Assembly: GCA_039944535.1 (NCBI GenBank)
Contig: JBDUYP010000022.1
Coordinates: forward strand, 1-32,000
Source: Cyclobacteriaceae bacterium
Lineage (GTDB): Bacteria > Bacteroidota > Bacteroidia > Cytophagales > Cyclobacteriaceae
Direction of reading: 5' to 3'
DNA: 32,000 nt
Shown: piece after piece, positions 520 to 20,977 of the stretch
Numbering within the stretch: position 1 is the stretch's first letter
How the letters are laid out: every line of letters begins with the position of its first letter
Program-made: the position numbers and the translations under genes
Notes under the pieces: model-generated
Databases searched by the model: none
Seen by the model: the letters and a program-made list of their open reading frames with translations, nothing else
Told to the model about the DNA's origin: nothing

Positions 520-636
520 AAAGAATGGTGTTTGTTATCGTTGTTTATATTTATTTATAAGTAGTTGTATTTCAAGTATTTACAAAAACTTTTAATACTA
601 ATTGATCGTATTGTTTTATAGTTTTATATCAGAAAC

Positions 637-657
637 ATGTAAACCATATGTAAACCA
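637..657 (+). repeat. Tandem direct repeat ATGTAAACCA x2 (11-nt register) 8 nt upstream of the integrase ATG
   Basis: atgtaaacca at 637-646 and again at 648-657, separated by a single t. The repeat itself is certain; its function (arm-type site or operator) is not. Confidence 0.9.
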
Positions 658-664
658 CGCGTTC

Positions 665-1888
665 ATGAGTAAGTATCTAAGTGCAATAGCTAAAGTCATT
701 CTATTCAAATCTAAAACACTGAAAGCTGGATCGCATCCCGTAATGCTACGGATCACTTTCAAAGGAAAAAGAAAATATTTCACCACTCCCTTCAAGATGA
801 CTGATGAAGAATTTGAAAAACTCTTTTCAGCCAAACGTTTGCAAAAGACTGATCAAAATATTCTCACCCAAATTCGAAGCATAGAAGTTCGTGCGCAGAC
901 AACAATTGATCGAATAATAGAAGATACCCGCTCCTTTTCTTTCAGACAATTCGAAGACGCTTTCTATACATCAGCTAAAGACACCAACGTACTGAGGTTG
1001 TTCGATCAAAGAATTCAGTACTATCATGAGAAAGGGTCATATTCCACAAGAGACAGTTTTACTTGTGCTAAAAAGCACCTCCTTAAATACTCAAAAAACA
1101 ATGCATTACTACTTGAGGATATTACTCCAGAATATCTTGAGAAATACGAAAGGGCGCACCCAAAATTATCTCCCAACACTCTGGGCATTTACGAAAGAAA
1201 TTTAAGAGTGATTTTCAACCTTGCCATTAAGAATGGAGCAATCGCGCCAGAATTGAATCCATTTAACGAACACCGCCCACCGTTTCGACCAGGGCGAAAG
1301 AAAGCCCTAATCAAAGAGGATATTATTAAGATTCTCAATCATCAAACCGAAATGTATAGTTATAGGTGGCTATCACAACAGGTTTATATATTTAGTTACC
1401 TGTGTAATGGAATGAACCTGAAGGACATTGCCTCTTTAAGATGGACGGATGTAAATGACGGACGGATATATTTCATCCGGAGTAAAACAATCAACACCTC
1501 TGCAAGACCCAAAATACAAAGCATCAAAATCAATGAGCCACTTCTAAAAATCCTAAATGATTTGGAATACTATAAAACTACCGAATCAGATTATGTATTT
1601 CCTATTCTCAACAAGGGAGCCTCAGATGAGGAGCACTACAGGCGCAAGAATGATTTTGTCGGCACCATCAATGATAACATTAGGAAAATAGCCAAAGAAC
1701 TAGAGATCGAAAAAGACTTTACTTTTTACAGCGCGAGACATTCATGGGCCACTGTTTTGAAACGCGAAGGAGTCAGTGTCGAGGTGATTTCTGAAGGAAT
1801 GACACATTCGAGCGTGAGGGTAACTGAAGGGTATTTGGACAGTTTTGGAGATGATCAATTAGATAGTGTGAATGAATTCTTGTTATAA
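665..1888 (+). CDS. int: Tyrosine recombinase/integrase, Bacteroidetes type with N-terminal Arm DNA-binding domain
   Basis: ORF 602..1888. I start it at ATG 665 (MSKYLSAIAKVILFKSKTLKAGSHPVMLRITFKGKRKYF, a typical Arm-domain N-terminus). The C-terminal catalytic region carries YSARHSWATVL (HxxR) and HSSVRVTEGYL (catalytic Tyr). It lies next to the tRNA fragment. Confidence 0.9.
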   Translation: MSKYLSAIAKVILFKSKTLKAGSHPVMLRITFKGKRKYFTTPFKMTDEEFEKLFSAKRLQKTDQNILTQIRSIEVRAQTTIDRIIEDTRSFSFRQFEDAFYTSAKDTNVLRLFDQRIQYYHEKGSYSTRDSFTCAKKHLLKYSKNNALLLEDITPEYLEKYERAHPKLSPNTLGIYERNLRVIFNLAIKNGAIAPELNPFNEHRPPFRPGRKKALIKEDIIKILNHQTEMYSYRWLSQQVYIFSYLCNGMNLKDIASLRWTDVNDGRIYFIRSKTINTSARPKIQSIKINEPLLKILNDLEYYKTTESDYVFPILNKGASDEEHYRRKNDFVGTINDNIRKIAKELEIEKDFTFYSARHSWATVLKREGVSVEVISEGMTHSSVRVTEGYLDSFGDDQLDSVNEFLL

Positions 1889-2497
1889 TCATTCATAAGT
1901 CTCATTATAAATCTCCCTGATTCTCCTGCCCTCAAAAGTCCAATATGGACCAGGCGCAACATTGTAGTCATTACCCAATAAAATGCGCGTGGCTCTGGTA
2001 AGTGAAATGGTTTCTCCACGGAAAGAGACTTTCTTTTCCGTTTCCACAACACAAAATTCATCCTCAACATTGGACATAAGCCTGGAACCAACCGAAATGC
2101 CCATCTCAACGAAGTTGATTTGCGGTCTTTTCTTTCTGGAATACGCCTTGCCAGCTTCCTTTGAAGCCTCGTCTACCTTTTCTAACTCATTACTCACCTG
2201 TGGGGTAACATCTTCTACACAGATTAACTCAAGAAGGCCAATGGCTTGTTCATCGTCAATTTCAAAAAACTCCCGATTTGGGTTTATGCGATAAGGGCCA
2301 AACGCCTTGTGAAAGGCCTTCTCAACTTTCTTGACATCAGCAACTCTCCCTGCGAATGAACACTGAAAAGGCAGAGGTACACCGGTAGAGTAAAGCTCAC
2401 TCATTCGAATTTCTACTTCCAACCTTGTAGTCATCCCAATCTTCACCAGACCAGGTATTGCGGGATTAGTAAGTATATAAACGATTCCTTCTTCCAT
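1889..2497 (-). CDS. T5orf172 / GIY-YIG-like nuclease-family protein with a C-terminal DUF4357-like region
   Basis: Starting at MEEGIVYILTNPAIPGLVKIGMTTR...ELYSTGVPLPF...EKAFHKAFGPYRINPNREFFEI, which matches the T5orf172 pattern as I recall it. ATG 2497 lies 1 nt after the hsdR stop (2499-2501). Its stop codon (1889-1891) directly abuts the integrase stop (1886-1888). Confidence 0.65.
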   Translation of the reverse strand: MEEGIVYILTNPAIPGLVKIGMTTRLEVEIRMSELYSTGVPLPFQCSFAGRVADVKKVEKAFHKAFGPYRINPNREFFEIDDEQAIGLLELICVEDVTPQVSNELEKVDEASKEAGKAYSRKKRPQINFVEMGISVGSRLMSNVEDEFCVVETEKKVSFRGETISLTRATRILLGNDYNVAPGPYWTFEGRRIREIYNETYE

Positions 2498-2498
2498 A

Positions 2499-5465
2499 TC
2501 AATAATACTCCTTAATATACTCATAGGCCCTATCAAAGAGCACTTGATCCTTATGAAGTTGATATTTCAGCAAGGCTTTTCTCAAGGACTTTTGAACCTC
2601 CCGCTCCCCCGCTGATGAGTTTTGCCATCCTGGGAAGCGTACCTGCTTCACTATTTCATCAATGTCTTTGACGATCCGCTCCACCACCGCTGGAGTCTGA
2701 TCTGTTTTTAATTCGATGAATAATTCCGTTAAGGCAGCCTGAGGCGTTTTCTCTTCAATCAATGATTCCAGTTCCTTCTCAGCCAGCACCGTTTCTCTGG
2801 CCAGTTTGCAGAGTTCCTTTACAAACTCAATGGACGTAATCAATCCCTGCTCTGCTTTATCTCTGAGGGCTTCAAGACGTTCACTCAATTTTTTGAACTT
2901 CGGATTGCCTGCATGCTTCTTGAATCGCTTAATCAAGATGCCTTCCAGCTTAGCTGCGTTTCTTGGATCAGGATTGTTGAAGATCTCTTCGATCACATCG
3001 GCATCCAAAACGAACTCATCGAGGTGGTGAACATCGCCAACATGAATGTTTTCATGGATCAGTTTGGTGGTCTGTGCACCTAGCGTAAACCATAACAATT
3101 TTCCAGTATGATCTGAGGCAGGTCGTACCGATTCAAAAACTTGAGATAACCATTTGTAATCTTCCTGAAACTCATCTAAAACTGCATCTGGAGAAAGGGA
3201 CTCCCAAAGTTTCGAGAGGTATTTGAAGTCCTTAGCAAAGGCATCTTTCTTTTCGTCAGTACCAATAGCATTTTGGGCAGCCTCTAATCCTTCAAAACCT
3301 GTAACCTTACGATCTACCCCAATAAAATGATTCAAGGCTTTGGCGGCTGCATCAGGTAATTCTTCCTTAAGATTGGAGAGGTTAGTGATAACCTTCATCA
3401 CGCTCTTTTCATCAAATTGGAGTGCCTTGGCTGCATCATCAAAAACACCGAAATAATCGACAATGCGCCCAAAATGTTTGCCCTTATACAGTCGGTTGGT
3501 TCTGCATATGGCTTGAAGCAGGGTATGATCCTTGATGGATTTGTCCAGGTAAATGGTTTGGAGAATGGGTGCGTCAAATCCCGTGAGGAGCTTAGCAGTG
3601 ACGATGATAAATTTCAATGGTGAATGCTCATCCTCAAATTCCTCCACGATCTTTTCCTGCTTTCCTTTGTCCACACCCCATTTCTGCTTGAAGTCAAAAT
3701 CATCGTTGGCAGATGTAGAAATCACCACCCTGCTTGCTGCAGGATCAAAGTATTTATCCAGTTCCTCTTTATACTGCACACAGGCATACCGATCTGGGGT
3801 CACGATCATGGCCTTAAATCCATGCGGCTCCACTTTCTCTCGGAAATGCTGTGCAATGTCCTCCACGATCTTAGCTACCCGCTCCGGACTTTTGAGAAAT
3901 GCGGCCATCCGGGCAGAATGCTTGTTCAGCGCATCCGCCTCTTCATCAGACAAAGCTGAGGATTCCTTGAATGCTGCAAATAGCTTGTCGATGTTGTCGG
4001 TATCCACATGAACATCAACCAGCCTGGGCTCAAAATGTAGCGGTTTGGTGGCATCATCCCTAAGAGAGTCATGGAAGGTATATCGCGACATGTAGCCGCC
4101 CTGATCTTCCTCTGACCCGAAAGCCCAGAAGGTATTTTTGTCTGCTTTATTGACGGGTGTTCCCGTAAGACCAAACAGAAAGGCATTAGGCAATGCGGCA
4201 CGCATCTGGCGCCCCAAGTCGCCTTCCTGCGTACGGTGAGCCTCATCCACCATCACGATGATGTTCTCACGATCGTTCAGGTTGGGAGGTGCATCCCGAA
4301 ACTTGTGGATCATGGTAATGATGATCTTTCTGGTGTCTTTCTGCAAAAGATCTTTCAACTCACTGATACTCTCTGTAGTGATTACATTGGCCACATCTGC
4401 TGCATTGAATGTGCCACTGATCTGCGTATCCAAATCTGTACGATCTACCAGTATCAACACCGTGGGGCTCCTTAGATCGGCAAGCTTGCGCAACTTTTGC
4501 GCCGCGAAAACCATCAATAGTGATTTACCTGAACCTTGAAAATGCCAGATGAGTCCTTTTTTGATTCTCCCCTCCCTGACTCGCTCCACCAGCTTATTGG
4601 CACCCTCGTACTGCTGAAACCGGCAAATGATTTTAATCCTTCTTTTTTTACTGTCCGTGGTGAAGAGGGTGAAGTTTTGTAGGATGTCCAATAACCTGCC
4701 GGGATTCAATAAATCAGATAACTCCTTTCCGATCTCTCCAAGCCCAAGGCGCCTGGCCAAATCATCTTCATCTCCCTCTATCCGCCAGGGCGCCCAAAAA
4801 TCCAGAGGTGTGCGCACACCGCCATAATAAAGTTGCTTGCCCTCAGATGCAAAAGAGAGCACATTGGGTACGAACAATTGTGGTACCGCATTCTCATAGA
4901 TGTCGTGCACCTCGTGCGCACCATCCAGCCAACTGATAGACGGACGGATAGGTGTTTTCACTTCCCCGACTACTACGGGCAGTCCATTAATCAAGAGAAT
5001 GATGTCTGGGATCTTAGTCTCCCTGTGATGAACCCGGTATTGGTTGGTGATAATGTAGGTATTATTGGCCTTGTGATCAAAATCAATCAGGCGCACGGGC
5101 ACGTGCCGGTTATTCTCACCAAAGGGCATGGTTTTCTCACCCGTCATCCACTTGAAAAACTCCTCATTGGCACGAACGAGACCTACCTGATTCACTGTGA
5201 GTAGTATGGCACGAAGCTTATAGATGACTTCATCTGCCAATTCATTTCGTTCGGCGATTTCCGGATTCAGGTTGATCAAAGCCATGCGCAACTCCGACTC
5301 CACCAGTACCTCATTAATGCCTCTGCCTAGCTCGGAGGCAGAACGATATTGCCAACTATTACTGTAGGATACCTTGGGTTCTTCTGCCGCATTGCTATTG
5401 AGGTTGGTGCCGCTAAGCTGATGAATGATATAGTGCTCTACACTATTGAGTTCGTTAAATCCCAT
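2499..5465 (-). CDS. hsdR: Type I restriction enzyme R subunit
   Basis: 988 aa with SF2 helicase motifs: HFQGSGKSLLMVF (Walker A), MVDEAHRTQEG (DEAH), FGLTGTPV, QAICRTNRL. The N-terminus is nuclease-like. It shares an operon with hsdM and hsdS. Confidence 0.95.
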   Translation of the reverse strand: MGFNELNSVEHYIIHQLSGTNLNSNAAEEPKVSYSNSWQYRSASELGRGINEVLVESELRMALINLNPEIAERNELADEVIYKLRAILLTVNQVGLVRANEEFFKWMTGEKTMPFGENNRHVPVRLIDFDHKANNTYIITNQYRVHHRETKIPDIILLINGLPVVVGEVKTPIRPSISWLDGAHEVHDIYENAVPQLFVPNVLSFASEGKQLYYGGVRTPLDFWAPWRIEGDEDDLARRLGLGEIGKELSDLLNPGRLLDILQNFTLFTTDSKKRRIKIICRFQQYEGANKLVERVREGRIKKGLIWHFQGSGKSLLMVFAAQKLRKLADLRSPTVLILVDRTDLDTQISGTFNAADVANVITTESISELKDLLQKDTRKIIITMIHKFRDAPPNLNDRENIIVMVDEAHRTQEGDLGRQMRAALPNAFLFGLTGTPVNKADKNTFWAFGSEEDQGGYMSRYTFHDSLRDDATKPLHFEPRLVDVHVDTDNIDKLFAAFKESSALSDEEADALNKHSARMAAFLKSPERVAKIVEDIAQHFREKVEPHGFKAMIVTPDRYACVQYKEELDKYFDPAASRVVISTSANDDFDFKQKWGVDKGKQEKIVEEFEDEHSPLKFIIVTAKLLTGFDAPILQTIYLDKSIKDHTLLQAICRTNRLYKGKHFGRIVDYFGVFDDAAKALQFDEKSVMKVITNLSNLKEELPDAAAKALNHFIGVDRKVTGFEGLEAAQNAIGTDEKKDAFAKDFKYLSKLWESLSPDAVLDEFQEDYKWLSQVFESVRPASDHTGKLLWFTLGAQTTKLIHENIHVGDVHHLDEFVLDADVIEEIFNNPDPRNAAKLEGILIKRFKKHAGNPKFKKLSERLEALRDKAEQGLITSIEFVKELCKLARETVLAEKELESLIEEKTPQAALTELFIELKTDQTPAVVERIVKDIDEIVKQVRFPGWQNSSAGEREVQKSLRKALLKYQLHKDQVLFDRAYEYIKEYY

Positions 5466-6150
5466 CGACAGTATTCTTTAATGTGGTCATGATCATACCA
5501 AATCGCTCGTCTTGCTGATCATGATATAGGTTGCCAATAATGGCTTCCTGCAACAATTTACTTTCCAAAATCAATAAAAAGGATTCCTTTAGATAGTTTC
5601 TTACCGTTTCATCTGAATTGAGGATCTTTTCACGGATATCAGAAGTATGATTGAGTAAATAAACAATGTCCTCAAAATCATGACTGGCATATAAGTCCTT
5701 CATACCGCGATCACGGAAGGCGTCAAACTTGGCGGCCAAGAAATAGGGTAATGGTAAAATTCTGATAGTCAACCCTTCCAGATCATAGTGCAAGGCTTGA
5801 TCAAAACCAAGCTCAAACCAACGGTTGCCAGGTGCCCAACCAACGGGTTTGGTAGCCATCACATCGACAAGCACATCTTCATATCGGAAGCGGCAGACCA
5901 CTGAATCCTCCGCAGATTGTGTGAATCCACGACTGATCAACTCCTCTCGCAAAGTTTCCAGCGCTCCCAGACTGGCAATCTCCATGGTCAAGTCCAGGTC
6001 TTTTGTAGGACGAACATCATCTGCAGATGGATCATCTATGTACAAACTGACTACTGCTCCTCCTACATACACCACTTGATCATTAAGCTCTCCTAAAGCA
6101 GTGGCGATCTTCTTCGTGACTGCCCGATTGATTTGCGTATTCTTTAGCAT
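5455..6150 (-). CDS. Nucleotidyltransferase-fold protein (AbiEii-like toxin candidate)
   Basis: 231 aa. It has a Pol-beta-type NTase signature, VVYVGGAVVSLY...PTKDLDLTMEI (GG then DxD), and a helical C-terminal region. It overlaps the upstream wHTH gene by 7 nt and the hsdR start by 11 nt. Confidence 0.55.
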   Translation of the reverse strand: MLKNTQINRAVTKKIATALGELNDQVVYVGGAVVSLYIDDPSADDVRPTKDLDLTMEIASLGALETLREELISRGFTQSAEDSVVCRFRYEDVLVDVMATKPVGWAPGNRWFELGFDQALHYDLEGLTIRILPLPYFLAAKFDAFRDRGMKDLYASHDFEDIVYLLNHTSDIREKILNSDETVRNYLKESFLLILESKLLQEAIIGNLYHDQQDERFGMIMTTLKNTVDGI

Positions 6151-6656
6151 ATCCGCTTTTTGAGTTCTTCTACCGCGATGTTTCGTTCACGTGCTCTGCC
6201 TACTCTGAGCGCATCACACAAGGCCATTACTTCATAAAATGCCGGATCTTTGAGACAGGCGACAGGCACACTTGGATAAAGAGGCTCTATGGCCTGACCT
6301 CTCACATTCCCTTCATGATGTGGCCATACATACGGAGCATCACTCATGATCTCCTCGCTCAGTGGTGGCGCGGCATGGGCGGTTGGTACTCCTCTTAATA
6401 GCGCACCAGGCCGCTGGGGATAGACATACCGAAGACCATATTGCAAAAAATCCATTAAGGCTTGCCGCATCAGCTCCTTCTTGTTCTGAAACAATAACCC
6501 AGCAATGGACGAACGGTTCAGGCTCTCACTCACTTCACTGGCACTGATCTCCAACTCACGCGAAAGCTCTTTCATGGTCCAGGGCTGCTCACCTTTGATG
6601 GCTATTTTGAGTAGGATGACCACATCCTGTGGACGCATACCGCTGTGCTTTTTCAT
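6144..6656 (-). CDS. Winged-HTH regulator (AbiEi-like antitoxin / controller candidate)
   Basis: 170 aa. The N-terminal wHTH-like segment is VVILLKIAIKGEQPWTMKELSRELEISASEVSESLNRSSIAGLL, followed by a conserved-looking C-terminal domain. It is the first gene after a 133-nt intergenic gap that contains a perfect palindrome. Confidence 0.5.
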   Translation of the reverse strand: MKKHSGMRPQDVVILLKIAIKGEQPWTMKELSRELEISASEVSESLNRSSIAGLLFQNKKELMRQALMDFLQYGLRYVYPQRPGALLRGVPTAHAAPPLSEEIMSDAPYVWPHHEGNVRGQAIEPLYPSVPVACLKDPAFYEVMALCDALRVGRARERNIAVEELKKRIC

Positions 6657-6701
6657 TGGATGAGTGTTTTGCTATCCAGTAAAGGTAGGATTTAAATTCT
6701 T

Positions 6702-6720
6702 AATTCGCGAATCGCGAATT
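6702..6720. promoter_or_regulatory. Perfect 19-bp palindrome AATTCGCGA-a-TCGCGAATT; candidate operator for the wHTH protein
   Basis: 9-bp arms around a single central base, located 46-64 nt upstream of the wHTH start (6656). A Bacteroidetes -7-like element (TAccTTTa on the minus strand) lies between it and the start codon. Confidence 0.5.
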
Positions 6721-6789
6721 ACCAATGTTTGCTTTAGTGATCTGGCAATGCTATAGTGTTCGGTGCTATTGAATTCGATTAAATGCATA

Positions 6790-7665
6790 TCAGGGTTGAA
6801 TCAATTGATTCAATTTTTTAAAAGCATGATTTAAAACATTAATCTGAGATTGAATTGTGAACCGATACAAAACGTAATCGGTATACTGAGTGAAAATCTT
6901 GTATCTCCAATGATCAAAGGAATCTTCCTCTGCTATTGGCTGGAGAATATTCTCATAAATAACATCTTCAACATCTTGCTTAGCCACTTCAAAGGATCTT
7001 TGCCCATTACTATATCTCTCAACCCTTTTTGTTATTTTTTTTAGAAACTCGTCAATAAATTTCTGACGACCGTTTACGTAAAGTTCATCCCGATTTAAAT
7101 CATATACCCTGATTGATTCTTCGCCTTTATCGCTAAGATGTTCAAGCTTTCCATCTCTCAAATACACTAAATGATCATCTGGATTATCCAGTTCAGGATT
7201 AATTAAGACTGGTTTTTCTATTTTAATAGTACTAGAATAAGAGTAATTATGATTGAGGTCAATATTTTGACCAATCCATATAGGACTATCTAATCTCCTA
7301 ACTCCATTTAATAATGGAAATTCAGTACCCTTATGGCCATTGCAATTACCGCATGCGAATAGAAGATTTGTCCATTCATAGCCTAACCAATAATATCCTG
7401 TGTGTGCTGTTCCCTTTACACCATCTTTAGGTCGAAAATGCTCTACTTGCAAACGACTGCCCTTAGGTTTCTGATTACAATAAGCACACTTTTCATGATA
7501 ATAATTATCTAAAGCAGTTTTGACAATATTAGATCGATAAATAGAGGATGATTTAGCAGGCCATCTTTTTGACGTACTCAAATTAAGTATAGCACTATCA
7601 TATGCTGCCCAACCTGGCTTTAAATTACGAGGTGGGTTTGTCAAATTCTTATTGATTTTTCTCAC
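6790..7665 (-). CDS. HNH endonuclease (TIGR02646/PtuB-like)
   Basis: 291 aa. HNH core: CAYCNQKPKGSRLQVEHFRPK ... WTNLLFACGNCNGHKG (two CxxC pairs, catalytic His, Asn). GTG start at 7665 overlaps the upstream ATPase gene by 17 nt. Confidence 0.75.
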   Translation of the reverse strand: MRKINKNLTNPPRNLKPGWAAYDSAILNLSTSKRWPAKSSSIYRSNIVKTALDNYYHEKCAYCNQKPKGSRLQVEHFRPKDGVKGTAHTGYYWLGYEWTNLLFACGNCNGHKGTEFPLLNGVRRLDSPIWIGQNIDLNHNYSYSSTIKIEKPVLINPELDNPDDHLVYLRDGKLEHLSDKGEESIRVYDLNRDELYVNGRQKFIDEFLKKITKRVERYSNGQRSFEVAKQDVEDVIYENILQPIAEEDSFDHWRYKIFTQYTDYVLYRFTIQSQINVLNHAFKKLNQLIQP

Positions 7666-9451
7666 GAAACTTGGATTTTAGCTTTTCTAGAAATTCTTTA
7701 TTATCCGGATCTCGCAGTTCATTCTTCTTCTTTAATTCTTCAAATTCCTGAACCTCATTGAAAGTGTCTCCTGTAAATACATTTTTTCGATTTGGGTTCT
7801 GAACAGAAACTATTTCGTCGAAACCGAAAAGCTCAGAAGTAAGCAATTGGTTTGGCAATAGTTTATCAATGTTTATTTCCATAAAATCTAACCTCTCTAA
7901 TTCTACGGAAGATTTATTCCTTCTTAACCTAAGAAATACACTATTGGGTGGAGCTCCCAATAATGGAATTGGGCTGTGAGTTGTAACTATGAATTGAATG
8001 CCTGGAAATGCTTCATTCAATCTTATTATTAGCTCTTTTTGTGCACTAGGATGGAGATGAAGATCAATTTCATCTACAAGAACTATTCCTCGAAATTTAG
8101 CCGGATCTTCAACTTTTGGTTGTTGATCATAAAACCTGATAATGATATCAGACACAAACGAAAGTGTGCTTTTAGTACCTGAAGATAGCTGATCATAAGT
8201 GAGTTTAGAAACATTCTCGTCTTCATCATATCGAATAAAATAATCTGCTTTGACAACATTTCTTTCTTTATTAAAATGTACATCAACTAAGCCTGGAACA
8301 ACCTCACATAAAACCTGCACAATTAAATATTCACGATCCATAAACCGATTGAATTTCTCAATATCTGAATACCAATATTTTAATATTCGAGGTAGTTCAA
8401 TTAATCCCCTAGGAGTTCGTGCAAAGAGAGAATCTAACCTACCTTTTTTTGATAAGTGTTCCTCTGCCGGATTACTACCAGAAGTATCATACCTTTTCCA
8501 TAAACTCAATCGAAAAACTCCATAAGCAGCGAATCCATGAACCAAGGGGCGTTTTGCATACTTTGCATCACGACTATTTTCTGCACGCTTATAATGCTTT
8601 ATTGTATTATCATTCCTAACCAGATCAGCTTCAAATGATGTCCTTCCTTCCTGAAAATAATCCTTGGGAATTAATCCATACCCCAGCACTAATGCAATCG
8701 CCTTTAATAAGTTAGTCTTTCCAGATCCATTCTCACCTGTAATGAATATCCACCTGTTATTCATCGGAAGATTCCTAAATTCAATATGCTGGAAATTCGC
8801 AAAGTTGTTGACTACAAAAGAACTAATATAGGTGCCTCTATCCTTGTTTAAACCCTCTGTTAACTCGTAATCACGCTGAGCCTTACGGTGCTCTAAATGT
8901 TTAAAAATCTTGGCTCTACTATTTGAGAATTCATACTCATTAATAAAGCCAATTTTATCCCGTTCAATTATACTCTTTGAAAAGTATGACCCGTGGTTTT
9001 TCAAGACAACATCATCAATTGCCTTTTTTTCATTTTCAAGAAAATCTGATAATATACTTTCAATACTTCTGCCTTCTCCCACGATATATCGAAATCGCTC
9101 AATAGCTCCGTCCTCTCTTATTTTATCAAATTCCAGTAGCGGCACGATATGATCACGAAGAATATCGTATTTCCCACTTTCCTCCTCTGACATTGTAACA
9201 TCAAGCGATATGGTATAATTGACCTCATCACTTTCGCGAATAATCAAGCTTATATTAGGTAGTTTAGTTTGCCAGTTAACGCCAGTCCAAAATGAAACAG
9301 CCAAAAATTTCTCATTCCCGAAAAACCAATAGCCTCTTTCGAGCTTATTCCCCACATTGCTTTTTCTCAATGTAAATCTCAATTCAGGATCTTCTCTCCT
9401 TTTATATTCATCAAGAAATTCAAACAGTTCAGTATGGACATCTACCTTCAT
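7649..9451 (-). CDS. ABC/SMC-type ATPase (AAA_15/AAA_21, PtuA-like) with a ~205-aa uncharacterised N-terminal domain
   Basis: 600 aa. Motifs: ITGENGSGKTNLLKAI (Walker A, ~res 238), LSSGTKSTL (signature-like), VLVDEIDLHLHP (Walker B/D-loop), VTTHSP (H-loop). I recognise no motif in residues 1-205. The ATG is 2 nt after the hsdS stop. Confidence 0.8.
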   Translation of the reverse strand: MKVDVHTELFEFLDEYKRREDPELRFTLRKSNVGNKLERGYWFFGNEKFLAVSFWTGVNWQTKLPNISLIIRESDEVNYTISLDVTMSEEESGKYDILRDHIVPLLEFDKIREDGAIERFRYIVGEGRSIESILSDFLENEKKAIDDVVLKNHGSYFSKSIIERDKIGFINEYEFSNSRAKIFKHLEHRKAQRDYELTEGLNKDRGTYISSFVVNNFANFQHIEFRNLPMNNRWIFITGENGSGKTNLLKAIALVLGYGLIPKDYFQEGRTSFEADLVRNDNTIKHYKRAENSRDAKYAKRPLVHGFAAYGVFRLSLWKRYDTSGSNPAEEHLSKKGRLDSLFARTPRGLIELPRILKYWYSDIEKFNRFMDREYLIVQVLCEVVPGLVDVHFNKERNVVKADYFIRYDEDENVSKLTYDQLSSGTKSTLSFVSDIIIRFYDQQPKVEDPAKFRGIVLVDEIDLHLHPSAQKELIIRLNEAFPGIQFIVTTHSPIPLLGAPPNSVFLRLRRNKSSVELERLDFMEINIDKLLPNQLLTSELFGFDEIVSVQNPNRKNVFTGDTFNEVQEFEELKKKNELRDPDNKEFLEKLKSKFREKNQ

Positions 9452-9453
9452 AT

Positions 9454-10578
9454 CTAAAAAATCTGATTGATTAAACTCTTTTGAAGGGATAGGGAGCTTT
9501 CAATCGCAAATGATAGTTTGTCTACATTTACTTGAAAACCTCTCATCTTATTTAGCAAGCCGTTCTCATCATCAAGTACCTTGATCTCAAATTCCCCAAT
9601 TATTTTGTCACTGACTCTTGGCATTTTAGTACCAAATCCTTTCCCGGTTACATACTGAATAAAAGGTCTACTATGAAAATGATTTAATACATATTCTTTA
9701 GAAACTCCTTTAGTGTCGTAAATCAAGAGTTCTGTTGTAGATACGGCTTCAAATTCAGCAATAAAAGCTTTATCCAAGTATGGTCTGAGCTTGCTGTAGC
9801 ATAAATCACCTTCCTCAATGATATTGCATTGGGCTAATACTTCAGAAGAATCTCCACATTCCGTACAATGAGATGCACCAGACTTGATATGCTCTAGTCC
9901 GATATATTTTTTAAAAGTATGTGGAACTTGACTTTTCGATTTCTTTGGGATAAGAACCTTGGCTAATGGTATTTTTTTACCTTTTGACTTTATTATTTCA
10001 TTTTCAAAGAAAACTTGAGATGAAGTTTTCAACCTCTCCAACACCTCCCTCTCCCTTTCAATCACCTCATCCATGGCCCAGAGGAGTTCGGCCAGCTGGG
10101 CTTGCTGGTCTTTGGGGGGAAGGAGGAATTCGTAGTTGGCCAGGTCTTTAAACTTTACTCTTGGGGAAAGACCTCCTGCCGAATGCTTCACCGCGTAATC
10201 AAAGAACTTGTTATTGCAAACGATAAACGGCAATAGTTCAGGCATCAGGTTCTCCTTAGCTCTAAATACTGTAATATCTCCAGAGCAAATCCCACTAAAA
10301 GACGCTTGAGCGGCTTTCTTTAGATAAGCCCTTCTTCTGCCAAACAACACATCACCTTTGGAGAATTTCTTACTGAAAGTTGTGCTCTCCTCCAGCTTGC
10401 CAGATCGGGTCAAATGGATGTTCTCCGTATCGATATGCTCCAGCCCCACTACATGTTCTATCCCTTCATTGTAGATGTCTTTCGCATTTTCTTTTGGCTC
10501 AAATACCACATCACCAAACTTGACTGGTGTCCAATCTGACTTATCGATTTTAAGTTCTTGAATCGCTGATTCAATCAT
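9454..10578 (-). CDS. hsdS: Type I R-M specificity subunit
   Basis: 374 aa with two variable target-recognition regions. They are separated by a conserved helical spacer (QQAQLAELLWAMDEVIEREREVLERLK), and there is a second conserved helix at the C-terminus. ATGA start/stop overlap with hsdM1. Confidence 0.9.
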   Translation of the reverse strand: MIESAIQELKIDKSDWTPVKFGDVVFEPKENAKDIYNEGIEHVVGLEHIDTENIHLTRSGKLEESTTFSKKFSKGDVLFGRRRAYLKKAAQASFSGICSGDITVFRAKENLMPELLPFIVCNNKFFDYAVKHSAGGLSPRVKFKDLANYEFLLPPKDQQAQLAELLWAMDEVIEREREVLERLKTSSQVFFENEIIKSKGKKIPLAKVLIPKKSKSQVPHTFKKYIGLEHIKSGASHCTECGDSSEVLAQCNIIEEGDLCYSKLRPYLDKAFIAEFEAVSTTELLIYDTKGVSKEYVLNHFHSRPFIQYVTGKGFGTKMPRVSDKIIGEFEIKVLDDENGLLNKMRGFQVNVDKLSFAIESSLSLQKSLINQIF

Positions 10579-12041
10579 TTCTCTAATATTTCAAAAAGTT
10601 GATTCATTGATTTCGTCAAGTCTTTTGATGACCCGTCCCAGGCTGCATACGCATCATTAAAACTGATATCATTTTCACTGGAATGCTCTTCTGGTCGGAT
10701 GTACAAACTGATTGACATGTTGGCATTCTTTTCCAAAACCTCTGATGTCTCAATGCGTTTGCTAAACTTTTCTTGATTTGAAAAAGCAGTGTAAGCATTA
10801 AATATCTTTTGGACATGATCGTCTTCCAAATAGCCCATGGTCTTTTCTTGTTTCACTTCATTCACGGCATTGATGAACAGGATTTTTCCTTTTTTATGTT
10901 CAGGCTTGTGATTGCAGGTAATCAATAAACACGCCTCCATAGGCGAGTTGTAAAACAAGTTTGGCCCTAGTCCGATCACACAATCGACCAAATCCTCTTC
11001 AATCATCTTTCTGCGCATTGCTGCTTCAGAATCACGGAATAAAATCCCATGTGGCCATAAGGAAATAGAACGCCCGTTATCAGGATTCAAACTCTTTTGA
11101 ATATGCTGCTGAAACGCATAATCCGCACAACCTTGTGGCGGCACACCCCAGAGGTTACGTCCGTAAGGGTCGTTGGCAAAGCTTTTCTGGTCCCAGGCTT
11201 TAATGCTGTAAGGGGGATTGGCCAGGATGACGTTGAAGGTCTTAAGCTCGTCGTTGTGCAAAAAGGCCGGGTTGGCCAGCGTATCGCCCCGCACAATGCT
11301 AAACTCCTCTATGCCGTGCATAAACATGTTCATGCGAGCAATGGCCGAGGTAAGCAGGTTAATCTCCTGCCCGTAAAGTTTCAGGGTGCGGTATTCCTTT
11401 CCTTCTTCCTTCAGGTGCAGGGCGCAGTTAAGCAACAAACCGCCTGAACCACAAGTAGGGTCATAGACACTTTCGCCCGGCTGAGGGTCCATGATCAGGG
11501 TCATCAGCTTCACCACCGTGCGGTTGGTGTAAAACTCCGCAGCAGTGTGTCCGCTATCGTCGGCAAATTCCTTGATCAGGTATTCGTAGGCATTGCCCAG
11601 TTTATCATCTGCCACATTGCTCAGGCTCAGCTTGTGCTGGGAGTAATGCTCTATAAGGTTGGTGAGGGTCTCGTCACTCAGCCGGTCTTTGTTGGTCCAG
11701 CTGGCATCCCCAAAGATGCCGTAAAGCGTATCGGGGTTTGCTTTTTCTATAGCCCGCATGGCTTCCTGCAAGGCTATCCCTACATTGGCAGTGGTTTCAC
11801 GCACATCCTTCCAATGGGCTCCATCAGGTACTAGAAAATGGTGGTGTTCTGTGAAAGCAGCGTATTCCATATCGCCATCACTTTCTTCCAGTGCCTTTTC
11901 AAACTCTTCGTCATAGACATCACAGATACGCTTGAAGAACAACAGCGGAAAGATGTACTGCTTGTAGTCACCCGCATCGATGGTGCCTCGCAATTGGGTA
12001 GCCGCTCCCCAAAGGTATTTTTCGAGTTGTTGTTGGGTCAT
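10575..12041 (-). CDS. hsdM: Type I R-M N6-adenine DNA methyltransferase subunit (copy 1, coupled to hsdS)
   Basis: 488 aa with an HsdM N-terminal domain (YIFPLLFFKRICDVYDEEF), SAM motif DPTCGSGG and catalytic ANPPYS. Confidence 0.95.
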   Translation of the reverse strand: MTQQQLEKYLWGAATQLRGTIDAGDYKQYIFPLLFFKRICDVYDEEFEKALEESDGDMEYAAFTEHHHFLVPDGAHWKDVRETTANVGIALQEAMRAIEKANPDTLYGIFGDASWTNKDRLSDETLTNLIEHYSQHKLSLSNVADDKLGNAYEYLIKEFADDSGHTAAEFYTNRTVVKLMTLIMDPQPGESVYDPTCGSGGLLLNCALHLKEEGKEYRTLKLYGQEINLLTSAIARMNMFMHGIEEFSIVRGDTLANPAFLHNDELKTFNVILANPPYSIKAWDQKSFANDPYGRNLWGVPPQGCADYAFQQHIQKSLNPDNGRSISLWPHGILFRDSEAAMRRKMIEEDLVDCVIGLGPNLFYNSPMEACLLITCNHKPEHKKGKILFINAVNEVKQEKTMGYLEDDHVQKIFNAYTAFSNQEKFSKRIETSEVLEKNANMSISLYIRPEEHSSENDISFNDAYAAWDGSSKDLTKSMNQLFEILEK

Positions 12042-12055
12042 ATCTTATTTATTAA

Positions 12056-12106
12056 CCACAGATTCACACAGATAACCACAGATTTAATCTGAGTGATCCG
12101 TGGTGA
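12056..12106. repeat. Array of CACAGAT motifs (3 copies, 10-nt period) followed by two degenerate inverted copies
   Basis: CACAGAT at 12057-12063, 12067-12073 and 12077-12083, then atctgagtg / atccgtggtg at 12088-12105. It lies between the GxxExxY stop (12113) and the hsdM1 start (12041). Confidence 0.9.
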
Positions 12107-12112
12107 CCGTTT

Positions 12113-12487
12113 TTACATTATTATTCTATTTATTCCCTTTTTCATATCCTGCACATTGAAGTTGAGCAACAGCCCCAACTTTAATCCAGATAGTTTTAAA
12201 TACGTCATCAACTGTGCTTTATGAATCGGGGCAATTTCATCCACCGATTTGAGTTCCAGAATGATTTGTCCGTTCACCAAGAGATCAATTCGATAACCGG
12301 CATCCAGTTTTATCTCGTTATACACCACCGGAAGTGCTTTTTGTCGTTCGACATTCAATCCTGTTTTTAGCAATTCATGCTCTAAACAGACTTCATAGGT
12401 TGATTCCAAAAGGCCGGGCCCCAATTCCGTATGAACTTTATATACACAGCCAATAATCTTATAGGACAATTCATTCAAAGATTCCAT
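12113..12487 (-). CDS. GxxExxY protein (PD-(D/E)XK nuclease-like, PDDEXK_3 family)
   Basis: 124 aa with the eponymous motif GPGLLESTYE (G-L-L-E-S-T-Y) and a downstream D...ELK core (IDLLVNGQIILELKS). Confidence 0.85.
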   Translation of the reverse strand: MESLNELSYKIIGCVYKVHTELGPGLLESTYEVCLEHELLKTGLNVERQKALPVVYNEIKLDAGYRIDLLVNGQIILELKSVDEIAPIHKAQLMTYLKLSGLKLGLLLNFNVQDMKKGINRIIM

Positions 12488-12514
12488 CTGTGCTAATCTG
12501 CGCTATCTGTGGTG
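12486..12514. repeat. Inverted-orientation array ATCTGTG / ATCTGCG / ATCTGTGGTG (about 10-nt period)
   Basis: Motifs at 12486-12492, 12496-12502 and 12505-12514. They are the reverse complement of the CACAGAT motifs at 12056-12083. The array overlaps the GxxExxY start codon and encodes the last codons and stop of hsdM2 (KFTTDSAD*). Confidence 0.9.
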
Positions 12515-13989
12515 AACTTCATTAGTATCTTCTTAAACTTCACCTCTGCCTGTTGACTTGCTTCCCAAGCAGTTTTCAAATCCGCAAGTGCTTCTTCCAC
12601 ACTCGGAAGGTTGTCTTCAATAACCTTCTCTACGTACAATGGAATATTGAGATTGAAGTCGTTCTCCTCAAGGTCTTTGAGATCGGCCACTTTCACATAG
12701 TTCTCCACATCAGCATATGACTTGAACCACTTAAATATCTGGTTGACATGCTCTGGTTCCAGATAGTTTTGAGCTCTACCCACGCGTACCTGATCGGAAG
12801 CATCGATAAAAAGGACTTTGCCTTTCTTATCAGAATTCTTGTTTTGCTTGAACACCATCACACAAGCCGCCAGTTGAGTTCCGTAGAAGATATTAGGCCC
12901 CAAACCAATGACCGCTTCCAGCATGTCTTGCTTAATGAGCGCTTGCCTTATTCGCCCTTCTGCTCCTTTTCTAAATAAAGCACCATGTGGCAGTACTACC
13001 GTCATTCGTCCCGTGCTGTTCATAGACTTGATCATGTGCTGCACCCAGGCCATGTCGCCATTGCCTTGGGGAGGCACTCCCGCAATGTTGCGTCCATAAG
13101 GATCGTTTGCCCAATTCTCAGCGCCCCATTCTTTCAATGAAAATGGAGGATTGGCGATCACACAATCAAAGGTCTTCAAACCATCAGCTTCAAAGAAGGC
13201 TGGATGGCGCAAAGTGTCTCCCCTATGAATCTGAAAGTCTTCAATCCCATGAAGAAACATATTCATCCGGGCAATCGAACTGGAGGTTAGATTCTTTTCC
13301 TGTCCATAAAGCTTTAGTGTACGGAAATCTTCGTCATTGTGCTTAAGGTGGTCAATGCATTCCAGCAGCATTCCACCGGTACCGCACGCAGGATCATAGA
13401 TGGTTTCTCCTTCATGTGGGTCGAGGATCAATCCCAGTAAATGAACCACTGATCTTGGTGTATAGAATTCGCCCGCTTTCTTATTGGTTAGATCTGCAAA
13501 GTGCTTGATCAGGTATTCGTAGGCGTTTCCAAGCAAATCTGAATCTACATTGCTGTTGGAGAGCTCGTATTGCGAAAAATGCTCGATCAGATCAATAAGC
13601 AACCGATCCGAGAGTTTATTCTTGTTGCTCCATTGGGCATCTCCGAATATGCCATAGAGAAATTCCTGATTGGCTTGTTCTATTCCCCGCAAAGCTTTTT
13701 CGATAGCCAAGCCCACATTGGAGGTAGTTTCTCTGACGTCATTCCAATGACAGCTTTCAGGAATAACAAACCGGTGGAATTCCGGCAATGACGCATATTC
13801 ATTGTCTCCATCGGATTCCTCCAGAGCCACACGGAATTCTTCATCATATACATCAGATATCCTTTTGAAAAACAAGAGTGGAAAGATGTAAACCTTAAAG
13901 TCCGAAGCATCTACCGGGCCTTTGAGTATCCAGGCTGCTTTAGACAAATATTGTTCGAGTTGCGATTGTGTGAGATTTTTACTTTGCAA
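12493..13989 (-). CDS. hsdM: Type I R-M N6-adenine DNA methyltransferase subunit (copy 2, no cognate hsdS)
   Basis: 498 aa, colinear with copy 1 over its full length. It has YIFPLLFFKRISDVYDEEF, DPACGTGG and ANPPFS. The apparent start is TTG at 13989; there is no in-frame ATG upstream before a stop. Confidence 0.9.
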   Translation of the reverse strand: MQSKNLTQSQLEQYLSKAAWILKGPVDASDFKVYIFPLLFFKRISDVYDEEFRVALEESDGDNEYASLPEFHRFVIPESCHWNDVRETTSNVGLAIEKALRGIEQANQEFLYGIFGDAQWSNKNKLSDRLLIDLIEHFSQYELSNSNVDSDLLGNAYEYLIKHFADLTNKKAGEFYTPRSVVHLLGLILDPHEGETIYDPACGTGGMLLECIDHLKHNDEDFRTLKLYGQEKNLTSSSIARMNMFLHGIEDFQIHRGDTLRHPAFFEADGLKTFDCVIANPPFSLKEWGAENWANDPYGRNIAGVPPQGNGDMAWVQHMIKSMNSTGRMTVVLPHGALFRKGAEGRIRQALIKQDMLEAVIGLGPNIFYGTQLAACVMVFKQNKNSDKKGKVLFIDASDQVRVGRAQNYLEPEHVNQIFKWFKSYADVENYVKVADLKDLEENDFNLNIPLYVEKVIEDNLPSVEEALADLKTAWEASQQAEVKFKKILMKFTTDSAD

Positions 13990-14142
13990 TTTTCTTGGGA
14001 GTTGGATGACTAAAAGTAGACATCAAAGCGGTCATTATGATGATCAATTAAATATATTTATAGATGTTGGTATATGCATATCCTTTTCAGCTGTAAAACA
14101 CGATTATAGTGAACAATTTTAAATAATCATCTAAGTGACGTT

Positions 14143-15153
14143 ATGAATGAAACAGACATAACCCCTGAGAAGATCGAAAAAGACATTGACTCAAAACGAT
14201 CAGAAATAGAAATAGATGTCAAAAAAGAGTTGCCGAAAATTCAAATCTATAAGAATATTTCAGATCAGAATGACCATTTTCAGGGATACTTTAATCTCCG
14301 AAGATCAGGTCTCTTTGAAGTAACCCTAAAGGTAGAAGGGGACAAATCCTACAGCCATTTCAATACTTTTATTAAAGCCTGTGCCGAGGAATTTGATTCC
14401 TGGCATAATTCACTGACATCCTCATACCTCCCTGAGTATTTCAAAAAAAACAAGAGTGATGTACTCTCAGATAGAAATAACCTTTGGGATCTTCGGGACA
14501 TCCACTTGCATAAATTGCAACAACTGGGTGAGAAAACCGGGCTTTATGCTGACCGTGAATTATTACTTAACCCTGAACTGAATAAATTGTATGAAGTCAT
14601 CATTGAAGCGCATGTATTGAAAGACATGTTTGTCAAAGTAGAATCAATGAATGTTGATGACCCAAACATGATTGATAATTTCCTGAACGACACACAAGAT
14701 CCTTTTCAGGAGCTGCGCGAATTGGAAAATAAATTCAACACGGCTAGTGTTGGTGAATTGATCAACTTTTTCAGTGTTCTAAGAAAGGAAGTTAGAGGCC
14801 AAAGTGGACCAATAGCGTCGAACCAAGATATTGTCAACCTTGTGAAATCAATACTTAGCAAACAAGTCAAGAAAGGAAGTATCAAACCAAACCTAGTAAG
14901 TTCAGACTATCCAGCAGTAAGGAGGCTGTTTTTTGACTTTTACAATGAATTCAAAGAAAGAGACAAGTACCAAATTGAACCAATGCTTCGCAAGCAAGAC
15001 TACCTGAAATTCATAGAGAATTTCGAGCCATTTAAGGAAGCCACTTCAAGCGATTCATGGATCAAGGATACAAACCCGAAAAAACAGAGCACAACACTGA
15101 CGGAATTGACAAGTAGAAGGAAAAATCCTCTACAACCTCTACTTGAAAAATAG
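14143..15153 (+). CDS. Hypothetical protein (336 aa), no recognised domain
   Basis: Long ATG-initiated ORF, divergent from hsdM2 across a 153-nt AT-rich spacer. Predicted to be acidic and helical. There is a weak resemblance to RteC-like regulators of Bacteroidetes mobile elements, which I do not trust. Confidence 0.6.
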   Translation: MNETDITPEKIEKDIDSKRSEIEIDVKKELPKIQIYKNISDQNDHFQGYFNLRRSGLFEVTLKVEGDKSYSHFNTFIKACAEEFDSWHNSLTSSYLPEYFKKNKSDVLSDRNNLWDLRDIHLHKLQQLGEKTGLYADRELLLNPELNKLYEVIIEAHVLKDMFVKVESMNVDDPNMIDNFLNDTQDPFQELRELENKFNTASVGELINFFSVLRKEVRGQSGPIASNQDIVNLVKSILSKQVKKGSIKPNLVSSDYPAVRRLFFDFYNEFKERDKYQIEPMLRKQDYLKFIENFEPFKEATSSDSWIKDTNPKKQSTTLTELTSRRKNPLQPLLEK

Positions 15154-15231
15154 TACACCCTCAACCTCCTCTACTTTCAAATTCTGGAGTCAAAACCTAT
15201 CGTAACATCGCTTAAACAAACTAATAAAGCG

Positions 15232-15564
15232 ATGAAAAAAGAATTAAAAAATATCAAAGAATGGCTCCAGGCAGTCATTTTTGATGCCATTGAAAAGGCC
15301 TTTATCAAGTATTATCCCAGAAAGGATCCGGCCAGCAATTTTCTTAATGCGCAAGAAAGCGCGGCATATCTCGGAGATGCAATGCCAACTTTTTACCGCC
15401 GGGTTTCTGAAGGCGAATTACCTACATACGGGGGTGGAAAAAAAATCTTCTGTAAAGAATCTGATCTCATGGATTGGCTCAGCCAAAGCCGGTCTTACAG
15501 CAAAGAACAGCTGGAAAAAAATGCCATCGAAAACATGCAACATAGAATAAGGAGGACGTCATGA
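15232..15564 (+). CDS. HTH_17 / excisionase-family DNA-binding protein
   Basis: 110 aa. LNAQESAAYLGDAMPTFYRRVSEGELPTYGGGKKIFCKESDLMDWL is the MerR-like excisionase HTH pattern common in Bacteroidetes mobile elements. ATGA overlap with the next gene. Confidence 0.75.
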   Translation: MKKELKNIKEWLQAVIFDAIEKAFIKYYPRKDPASNFLNAQESAAYLGDAMPTFYRRVSEGELPTYGGGKKIFCKESDLMDWLSQSRSYSKEQLEKNAIENMQHRIRRTS

Positions 15565-17093: not shown

Positions 17094-17149
17094 CGATTCA
17101 TAAAAAAAGGTATATACCCCATTTAGAGTTTTGTTAATTCTTAATTACT

Positions 17150-20965: not shown

Positions 20966-20977
20966 CTTGTTTTTATA

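Follow-up and report, generated by a model that had tools for sequence, protein, structure and literature searches.

Does a run of ten genes packed head to tail around a Type I restriction-modification (RM) operon form one coordinated defence machine, or is it a set of independent systems that happen to be carried together? This question is raised by a stretch of 32,000 nucleotides from a Cyclobacteriaceae bacterium (GenBank assembly GCA_039944535.1, contig JBDUYP010000022.1, positions 1 to 32,000; the whole of this stretch is called the window here). An open reading frame (ORF) list, together with scans against Pfam and PADLOC models, shows ten ORFs at positions 1889-13989, all of them read from the minus strand. 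A sequence-only reading of the same DNA had proposed a coordinated multi-layer system, whose accessory effectors would sense failure of the Type I enzyme. The comparisons described below point elsewhere: the locus is probably a mosaic of autonomous defence cassettes docked in a PacII-like Type I operon of the N6-methyladenine/N4-methylcytosine (m6A/m4C) kind, carried on a mobile element. The phenomenon has already been described, and the locus is not a new integrated machine. In gene order, with HTH standing for helix-turn-helix and NTase for nucleotidyltransferase, the ten genes are:

12493-13989, minus strand: hsdM of the M1 type (Pfam N6_Mtase 8e-104, HsdM_N)
12113-12487, minus strand: GxxExxY/PDDEXK_3 protein, 124 aa (Pfam PDDEXK_3 6e-45, TIGR04256 2e-46)
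10575-12041, minus strand: hsdM of the M2 type (N6_Mtase, HsdM_N)
9454-10578, minus strand: hsdS (PADLOC Specificity_I 4e-105, in two stretches)
7649-9451, minus strand: PtuA, 600 aa (PADLOC PtuA PDLC00287 1e-145, residues 4-587)
6790-7665, minus strand: PtuB/HNH protein, 291 aa (PADLOC PtuB 7e-58; Pfam HNH 4e-5)
6144-6656, minus strand: HTH protein, 170 aa (PADLOC PDC-M21A 1e-49; weak MarR_2 match)
5455-6150, minus strand: AbiEii/DUF1814-type NTase, 231 aa (Pfam AbiEii 33 bits; PADLOC PDC-M21B 5e-51)
2499-5465, minus strand: hsdR, 988 aa (TIGR00348 4e-159; Pfam HSDR_N, SWI2_SNF2, T1R_D3-like)
1889-2497, minus strand: T5orf172 protein (Pfam T5orf172 4e-17; PDC-S57 9e-74)

All ten ORFs are full length when compared with their family models, and the catalytic motifs that were checked are present. 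The successive junctions from the first hsdM to hsdR measure +5, +71, -4 (ATGA), +2, -17, +133, -7 and -11 nt. The ORF list and these measurements bear out the earlier description of ten co-directional genes that overlap or nearly abut, and with such distances co-transcription or translational coupling is likely, as had been supposed. One start codon had to be moved. The T5orf172 gene had been started at TTG 2536, with a 38-nt overlap; it most likely starts at ATG 2497, 1 nt after the hsdR stop, because the PADLOC match, which covers residues 14-214 counted from the TTG, begins at residue 14. The PADLOC check of the region that had been recommended returned matches to PtuA, PtuB, PDC-M21A/B, PDC-S57 and Specificity_I.

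The presence of two methylase genes is explained by the kind of Type I enzyme that forms the backbone. The two HsdM paralogues are 53% identical to each other and both retain the S-adenosylmethionine-binding motif. The product of 12493-13989 carries AGEF at residue 172 and NPPF at residue 280, with motifs I and IV kept, and the product of 10575-12041 carries AAEF at residue 167 and NPPY at residue 275, plus an NSPME loop. The best match of both in the PDB is PacII: the NPPF protein scores 563 bits against 7vru_A and 501 against 7vru_B, and the NPPY protein 630 bits against 7vru_B and 440 against 7vru_A, where the identity of each chain as M1 or M2 is taken from these scores and not from the entry. 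HsdS has two target-recognition domains, the first of which (residues 15-191) matches residues 9-185 of the PacII S subunit (7vru_C, 6e-27). The gene order is M1-M2-S-R, with M2 adjoining S through the ATGA overlap, and it is shared by related loci. Type I systems are known to include a non-canonical subgroup in which a heterodimeric M1M2S methyltransferase modifies one strand with m6A and the opposite strand with m4C, and its diagnostic features are NPPF/AGEF in M1, NPPY/AAEF in M2 and the order M1-M2-S-R (PMC5100572; PMC9613975). The published M1/M2 identity within this subgroup is 45-55% (PMC5100572). Relatives were collected by an HsdR search restricted to one genome per species, which gave 372 confirmed matches, and the best 80 loci were examined. 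In most of these loci with enough upstream sequence, orthologues of the upstream HsdM are 82-92% identical and those of the downstream HsdM 73-87%. Because the diagnostic motifs, the gene order, the conservation in relatives and the PacII chain matches coincide, the upstream hsdM is, as judged from sequence, a core subunit of a PacII-like m6A/m4C Type I system and not the accessory second methylase that it had been taken for. Published nomenclature also exchanges the names first given to the two genes, so that 'hsdM2' and 'hsdM1' become M1 and M2, respectively. The NPPF protein is the predicted m6A and the NPPY protein the predicted m4C methyltransferase subunit.

The evidence that the remaining genes are separate modules comes from the relatives. 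HsdR is 77-93% identical across the 80 species and nearly always 988 aa long; almost all of the hosts are Bacteroidota, with a few proteobacterial and Desulfobacterota metagenome-assembled genomes. The variable sites of these loci are the interval between M1 and M2 (slot A), the interval between hsdS and hsdR (slot B) and the region after hsdR. By approximate counts, slot B is filled in 52 of 62 loci (~84%) and empty in 10, and it spans from 2 nt to ~8.9 kb. Four or more genes occupy it in 16 of the 62, the maximum being seven where hsdS is in view, and nine genes stand upstream of hsdR in locus L036. Slot A is filled in 35 of 45 loci; there is no ORF there in ten, and eight loci have a gap of at most 8 nt. 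Nearly all inserted ORFs are co-directional with the operon (196 of 198), and the joints are tight: 145 of 221 slot-B junctions measure 10 nt or less, the next cassette starts within 4 nt of hsdS in 40 of 62 loci, and hsdR lies within 10 nt of its upstream gene in about 60 of 78. Among the inserts, a HEC-05/BrxU-like GmrSD was found 12 times in 11 loci, mostly in slot A, and the others include Tiamat TmtA, AbiL, DarTG, McrBC-like genes, a Mokosh-like helicase, GIY-YIG_2, DUF4145 and unknowns. The nesting of several cassettes, which had been considered special to this locus, is therefore the norm in the RM family, where at least two genes occupy slot B in 46 of 62 loci.

The closest backbone is that of L003, whose HsdR is 93% identical. 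In this locus, slot A holds DUF4145, and slot B holds c45 (unannotated), DarT, DarG and GIY-YIG, followed by the HTH/NTase pair. Homology between the two loci at the DNA level has exact limits at three places: the hsdR stop, the palindrome in the 133-nt gap (6719) and the final 45 nt of hsdS (95.6% identical). Between the operator and the hsdR stop the block of homology is unbroken. Cassettes have thus been swapped between near-identical backbones, which agrees with the earlier view of the Type I operon as a scaffold and of the inserts as separate modules. The supposition that the gene order might already be known held in part: multi-cassette nesting has been published, whereas the exact combination of the window was found only in L001, a contig of the same strain (L002 holds the hsdR-proximal part of the combination).

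The first of the modules in slot B starts 2 nt after hsdS. PtuA has a Walker A motif (GENGSGKT) at residue 239, and PtuB, whose gene overlaps that of PtuA by 17 nt, has the HNH motif. No retron reverse transcriptase domain was found among the ten ORFs with Pfam, there was no Rfam RNA match in the window, and in PADLOC the retron I-A ATPase model scores far lower than the PtuA models. The sequence evidence thus identifies the pair as Septu and not as a type I-A retron, and anti-phage activity is predicted for it. The nearest PtuA homologue is 55% identical. The same two-methylase RM family houses five of eight sampled PtuA relatives (37-55% identity), all of them in slot B, and the other three PtuAB relatives (32-36%) lie outside any Type I operon. 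Septu also occurs in nine other loci of the RM family at 26-56% identity, and identities as low as these within one family suggest repeated acquisitions. Other Septu arrangements were noted in passing. L164, a Logan contig (SRR35789029), has GxxExxY in slot A and, in slot B, Septu with four small unknown genes; in L163 Septu is followed by DarTG; slot A of L166 and L168 carries GmrSD_N/HEC-05, and their slot B has Septu and nothing else; and L165 is a further family member with a similar cassette combination.

The second module of slot B is formed by the HTH and NTase genes. The NTase gene shares 7 nt with the HTH gene and 11 nt with hsdR; its product matches Pfam AbiEii (PF08843) with 33 bits against a cut-off of 22.5, and the motifs GG...S and DxD do not vary among 22 homologues. 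In sequence and profile searches of the PDB the HTH protein had no match and the NTase had weak, marginal matches only. The HTH protein has 2237 homologues, none with a Pfam domain, and it has no AbiEi Pfam match; its AlphaFold2 model has a mean confidence (pLDDT) of 68, which is moderate, and an N-terminal HTH, with no significant PDB fold match beyond the generic HTH. A scan with an NTase profile found the two genes paired in all 78 metagenome loci that reach upstream of the NTase. On metagenome contigs of at least 5 kb (~38), about 14 pairs are followed by hsdR of the RM family and about 24 lie elsewhere, some beside integrases. Because the two genes are always paired and often away from hsdR, the pair is an autonomous module. 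PADLOC names it PDC-M21, a call that was rejected: the model describes a three-gene cassette (FAM_01665 >> FAM_00091 >> FAM_01402), of which the A and B models alone match here, and a two-gene version was itself rejected as a candidate in the source table.

Three features were recognised in the 133-nt gap in front of this pair:

6738-6788, minus strand: decayed, frameshifted copy of the hsdR 5' end, which starts 1 nt after the PtuB stop and takes up about the first 50 nt of the gap
6701-6721, minus strand: palindrome TAATTCGCGATTCGCGAATTA, the predicted operator of the HTH protein
6680-6687, minus strand: TACCTTTA, a candidate -7 box of Bacteroidota type (TAnnTTTG in the consensus), located 23 nt before the HTH start codon

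The palindrome occurs once in the window. In the upstream regions of loci L001-L082 every HTH gene is preceded by palindromes, often two of them ~60-80 nt apart, and three classes of them, co-varying with the HTH subfamily, can be told apart: AATTCGCGAnTCGCGAATT, the class of the window, ATATCGCATATCGCGATATGCGATAT and TATTCCGTATTCCGATACGGAATA. Autoregulation through inverted repeats has been demonstrated for AbiEi (PMC7319586; PMC3985639). The pattern seen here is that of an autoregulated operator, by analogy, and binding of the HTH protein to it is predicted; this protein would be an autorepressor and an antitoxin-like partner of the NTase. The HTH/NTase pair and hsdR therefore probably have a regulated promoter of their own. 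With this operator inside it, the array is probably not a single unit running from one promoter to one terminator. A -7 box (TAnnTTT[GA]) was present upstream of the HTH genes in 7 of 23 loci, compared with 17% of shuffles, and L003, L028 and L032, which have the same operator class as the window, show it at the matching position; outside this operator class the box was absent.

The decayed hsdR copy behind PtuB tells how the present order may have arisen. Its local alignment score with the start of hsdR is 52, whereas shuffled sequences gave 23.7 +/- 4.5 with a maximum of 43, and the translated stub MHLIEFNSTEHYSI can be compared with the true hsdR start MGFNELNSVEHYII. In L007, L008, L010, L058 and L073, hsdR comes immediately after PtuB, at a distance of 1-2 nt, and in L011 the two overlap by 11 nt. 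From this comparison, 6738-6788 is read as a recombination scar of a former PtuB/hsdR junction. Either an ancestral PtuB/hsdR junction would have been split later by the HTH/NTase unit, or a unit composed of Septu and the stub would have been placed before the pair; in either history, Septu and the HTH/NTase pair arrived separately. Clearer copies of the hsdR start, of 28-70 nt, stand at internal cassette junctions elsewhere (L054:9314-9383, L060:8640-8688, L032:8649-8694, L058:5606-5670), and further ones at L070:8602-8635, L044:8606-8633, L046:8632-8688 and L049:8902-8943. In L047 and L052 there are 5' stubs of another cassette (c11) after hsdS. The hsdR and c11 stubs are footprints of cassette gain and loss.

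The family thus has three docking sites, slot A, slot B and the position just after hsdR, which house cassettes co-directionally and with hardly a seam. Gain and loss would proceed by recombination on conserved anchors of the backbone, namely the hsdM genes, the final ~45 nt of hsdS and the initial ~50-70 nt of hsdR, and would leave scars such as the stub behind PtuB. The third site holds T5orf172 here, a GIY-YIG-related gene that is absent after hsdR in all 80 relatives. Its family, PDC-S57, is a PADLOC candidate, and a defence function is putative. Expression may be divided into two transcription units. The first would run from upstream of M1 through PtuB, and its promoter is likely to lie in the following stretch, the sole sizeable non-coding one upstream of the array:

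13990-14142, minus strand: intergenic stretch between hsdM(NPPF) and the divergent gene at 14143

The second would start at the palindromic operator and comprise the HTH gene, the NTase gene, hsdR and T5orf172, with the HTH protein as autorepressor; it is proposed because the NTase gene and hsdR have 11 nt in common and a single nucleotide separates hsdR from T5orf172. As predicted from knowledge of the families, the RM core would restrict unmodified DNA, and Septu, the NTase toxin pair and T5orf172 would act as independent second-line effectors. Embedding would then provide shared transfer and shared expression, and not a shared molecular mechanism.

Could the effectors nevertheless be wired to the enzyme that surrounds them? 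PrrC fires when the EcoprrI Type I enzyme is inhibited, and in an arrangement of this kind Septu, the NTase pair and T5orf172 would be held in check by the Type I enzyme, or would monitor it, and be released on its inhibition. The tight coupling and common direction of the genes fit such a guard, as does the location of five of the eight sampled relatives of the PtuA clade in slot B of the same RM family, and within this family the NTase pair always abuts hsdR. The discussion section of Payne et al. 2024 (10.1101/2024.01.29.577857) adds that anti-restriction proteins can trigger ABC-ATPase defence systems. Yet the cassettes are exchanged between near-identical backbones, and the RM core does without them in 10 loci; the HTH/NTase pair is often found away from hsdR, and PtuAB relatives stand alone. 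PADLOC ranks PtuA/PtuB best, with no PrrC or RloC model among the top matches, and the 26-56% identity of the Septu subtypes within the RM family suggests repeated acquisitions. A guard of this type is accordingly judged improbable. A narrower link, in which the HTH/NTase pair is a control or addiction element for hsdR, is regarded as unlikely though a little less so. The autorepressed promoter of the pair would drive hsdR and so delay or tune restriction like a C protein, or its toxin would stabilise the restriction half of the locus. This idea draws on the fact that the pair lies immediately before hsdR in all ~24 loci that have it upstream, with overlaps of 11-14 nt in the closest subfamily, on the co-variation of the palindromes with the HTH subfamily, and on the unbroken homology with L003 from operator to hsdR stop. 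It is a proposal from sequence comparison, and about two thirds of the family loci lack the pair, hsdR then standing 1-5 nt after hsdS or another cassette, while the pair is common without hsdR. Such a role would be compatible with the mosaic, to which it would be added.

Two further explanations were weighed. The first considers the locus a decaying junkyard of defence-gene fragments, for which the hsdR stub and a nearby ISL3 transposase fragment might be invoked; ten full-length ORFs with intact catalytic motifs, and an identical hsdR on eight public contigs, make this very hard to believe. The other sees two Type I systems collapsed into one, the upstream hsdM being the orphan remnant of a degraded second system, since there are two hsdM genes for a single hsdS and a single hsdR. 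An upstream M that is 82-92% identical in most relatives, that keeps motifs I and IV and that has the M1 signature in the order M1-M2-S-R leaves next to no probability for this account. There is also a bolder version of the preferred mosaic, which is considered unlikely: the PacII-like family would be an integron-like exchange platform for defence cassettes, whose short anchors, sometimes duplicated as stubs, let units of cassette plus anchor recombine seamlessly into any member. In the window, hsdR would have come under the autorepressed promoter of the AbiE-like toxin pair, restriction, toxin and T5orf172 would be switched together, and Septu and the pair would serve as back-ups when the RM enzyme is blocked.

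Several points count against the mosaic, or against parts of it, and have to be kept in view. The Septu clade is found mostly inside the same RM family, which could fit functional linkage besides shared recombination anchors. The same could be true of the HTH/NTase pair: in the ~24 related loci no other cassette ever separates it from hsdR, with which it often overlaps. The gene maps of the relatives come from crude ORF calling (ORFs of at least 70 aa, longest first), which is why the counts are approximate. The two transcription units are drawn from spacing and one operator-like palindrome. A sigma-70 promoter and terminator scan gave counts no higher than the shuffle expectation, with a sigma-70 model that is unfit for Bacteroidota, and the -7 box is not general across the loci, so that it is kept as weak evidence. 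Finally, AbiEi was considered as the identity of the HTH protein; with neither a Pfam nor a fold match to AbiEi, no assignment was made.

The gene in slot A, between the two hsdM genes, encodes a GxxExxY/PD-(D/E)XK_3 protein and is bounded by repeats on both sides:

12486-12514, minus strand: three CACAGAT-type heptamer repeats in the 5' flank of the GxxExxY gene, overlapping the end of hsdM(NPPF)
12056-12105, minus strand: inverted repeats CACCACGGAT...ATCTGTGG forming a hairpin in the 3' flank of the gene, with no U-run after it

The hairpin has an RNA folding energy of -22.2 kcal/mol (z -3.6) and is kept in four other loci, and the CACAGAT flank is conserved jointly with the GxxExxY gene in L005, L044, L072 and L074. 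The gene with both flanks, including the 3' hairpin CACCACAGAT...ATCTGTGGTG, extends over 12042-12520 in the window and over L005:3380-3880, L044:2870-3390, L072:1420-1970 and L074:2370-2890, and looks like a small mobile cassette. In L021, L044 and L072 the repeat also stands alone, upstream of HTH genes, and 12 tandem copies are found at L047:17540-17677. The heptamers were considered as a general signal of cassette boundaries and rejected as such; they mainly travel with the GxxExxY gene, apart from a few solo copies.

Some of the inserts in the relatives recur without a PADLOC or Pfam match. These are proteins of 120 aa (14 loci; for example L027:391-753), 318 aa (10 loci; L072:7731-8687), 192 aa (L030:8062-8640) and 208 aa (L024:1231-1857). 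A pair of 652 and 570 aa was found in 8 loci (L071:4556-6514 with L079:6314-8026), the 652-aa protein having no match and the 570-aa protein a weak one to PD-Lambda-4_A, and a pair of 1410 and 1295 aa with helicase domains by Pfam in 6 loci (L015:798-5030 with L050:6109-9996). These recurrent inserts are possible defence genes.

The surroundings of the array suggest how it travels. It is bordered on one side by an integrase, and an excisionase-like gene lies on the other:

602-1888, plus strand: tyrosine integrase of Bacteroidota type (Pfam Arm-DNA-bind_5, Phage_int_SAM_5, Phage_integrase)
15232-15564, plus strand: HTH_17 gene, excisionase-like, with an excisionase-domain score below the curated cut-off

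The HTH_17 product scores 24.6 bits for the excisionase domain, against an NCBIfam cut-off of 28.8. With these two genes as markers, the defence cluster is probable cargo of an integrative element, and integrases lie near the RM cluster in ~8-10 of the relatives. The plus-strand block at 14143-18001 encodes a 336-aa protein (no match), HTH_17, a 510-aa protein (no match) and a zinc-ribbon plus DUF6371 protein (PG0870-related), and is probably part of the backbone of the element. The integrase gene, ending at 1888, and the T5orf172 gene, ending at 1889, are convergent, and their stop codons abut (1886-1891), so that a terminator would not fit between them. The integrase region has at its edge the ISL3 transposase fragment (97-408), after which comes an inverted repeat of 17 bp, perfect and with a T-run (431-465). 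A pair of 16-mers, GATGATCAATTAGATA and GATGATCAATTAAATA, at 1850-1865 and 14039-14054, flanks the 12-kb RM cluster as a whole, and a second pair, of 17-mers, lies near its edges (1704-1720 and 14171-14187); these pairs could be due to chance or could be a trace of the entry of the cluster into the element. A search for att sites around the island found the 16-mer pair alone bracketing the cluster, possibly by chance, and no att site was called. Scans for tRNA genes and Rfam families in the window found none. Base composition also differs between the parts: the GC content at third codon positions is 0.51-0.54 in hsdM(NPPY) and hsdR, 0.285 in PtuA and 0.25 in PtuB, and the overall GC content of the flanking DNA further along the window is ~0.37-0.41. 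The locus is compositionally mosaic, because the backbone genes are richer in GC than the flanks and Septu is much richer in AT. Of the eight public contigs with the identical hsdR, two placements are displayed, the longer of them with identical gene order. Host genes fill 20582-31978: three GH32 genes, a glucuronate isomerase, two beta-lactamase-domain proteins, a D-serine dehydratase-like protein, a RidA/L-PSP protein and the end of a SusD gene. This region is a fructan-type polysaccharide utilisation locus and confirms the Bacteroidota host.

These results have consequences for annotation. The 'extra' methylase of such loci should be annotated as the second subunit of an m6A/m4C enzyme, and the entry for the locus should list RM Type I, Septu, an AbiE-like pair and PDC-S57 side by side instead of presenting a single new system. 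With the same backbone and dozens of cassette combinations, the RM family is a compact natural experiment, suited to mining untested defence genes and to testing whether embedding brings co-regulation or synergy. The scar and the operator evidence lead to testable hypotheses on cassette insertion and on hsdR expression. What the locus adds is incremental: the family-wide picture of three slots, the seamless junctions, the hsdR 5' scars and the subfamily-specific operators before the hsdR-abutting pair.

Each part of the locus has a described counterpart. Like the PacII-type systems (Morgan et al. 2016, PMC5100572; 7VRU, PMC9613975), it has paired M paralogues with the signature motifs, the order M1-M2-S-R and interspersed ORFs, which Morgan et al. 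reported between M1 and M2 in 6 of 10 systems and also between S and R (PMC5100572). Compared with those ten characterised systems, the inserts here are more numerous and larger, the setting is an integrative element of Bacteroidota, and the methylation chemistry is a prediction. As in other Septu systems, full-length PtuA and PtuB are adjacent and overlapping and have the Walker A and HNH motifs; the clade is divergent, PtuA has an N-terminal extension of ~200 aa, and the closest relatives are mostly embedded in the RM family. The pair before hsdR resembles the AbiE Type IV toxin-antitoxin system in being a bicistronic, overlapping combination of an HTH gene and a DUF1814/AbiEii NTase gene with inverted repeats upstream (PMC3985639; PMC7319586), and it differs in that the HTH partner is shorter (170 aa) and without an AbiEi family or fold match, and in that hsdR overlaps the toxin gene.

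The arrangement as a whole also has precedents. PrrC/EcoprrI, RloC and the Campylobacter rlo genes likewise place effectors between hsdS and hsdR, with an ABC-ATPase-type protein inside a Type I operon. In contrast to PrrC, the embedded proteins have no anticodon-nuclease family match, and the modules are met outside Type I operons as well. Payne et al. 2024 (bioRxiv 10.1101/2024.01.29.577857) described defence systems embedded in Type I RM, BREX, DISARM and Hma operons, with 96.7% co-orientation, and used embedding for discovery; embedded genes of this sort were the source of the PDC-S57 and PDC-M21A/B models. In both cases a multi-gene system has defence genes, known or candidate, nested in it co-directionally, and what differs is that here there are three slots per operon and two systems stacked in one slot. 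The hsdR 5' scar and the operator evidence have no equivalent in the discussion of the same preprint, as far as its text is available. TgvAB, on the Vibrio pathogenicity island VPI-2 of V. cholerae (PMC11411939), and DarTG2, in enteropathogenic Escherichia coli (EPEC) (PMC12255303), are each a two-gene system between RM genes, each works alone, and the hsdS/hsdR site has been proposed as a recombination hotspot (PMC11411939; PMC12255303). The EPEC island is under the control of a small repressor, RptR (PMC12255303). The locus described here differs from these two in its cassettes and in that its regulator, the HTH partner of the NTase, is borne by a cassette and lies inside the array, instead of being the first gene of the island.

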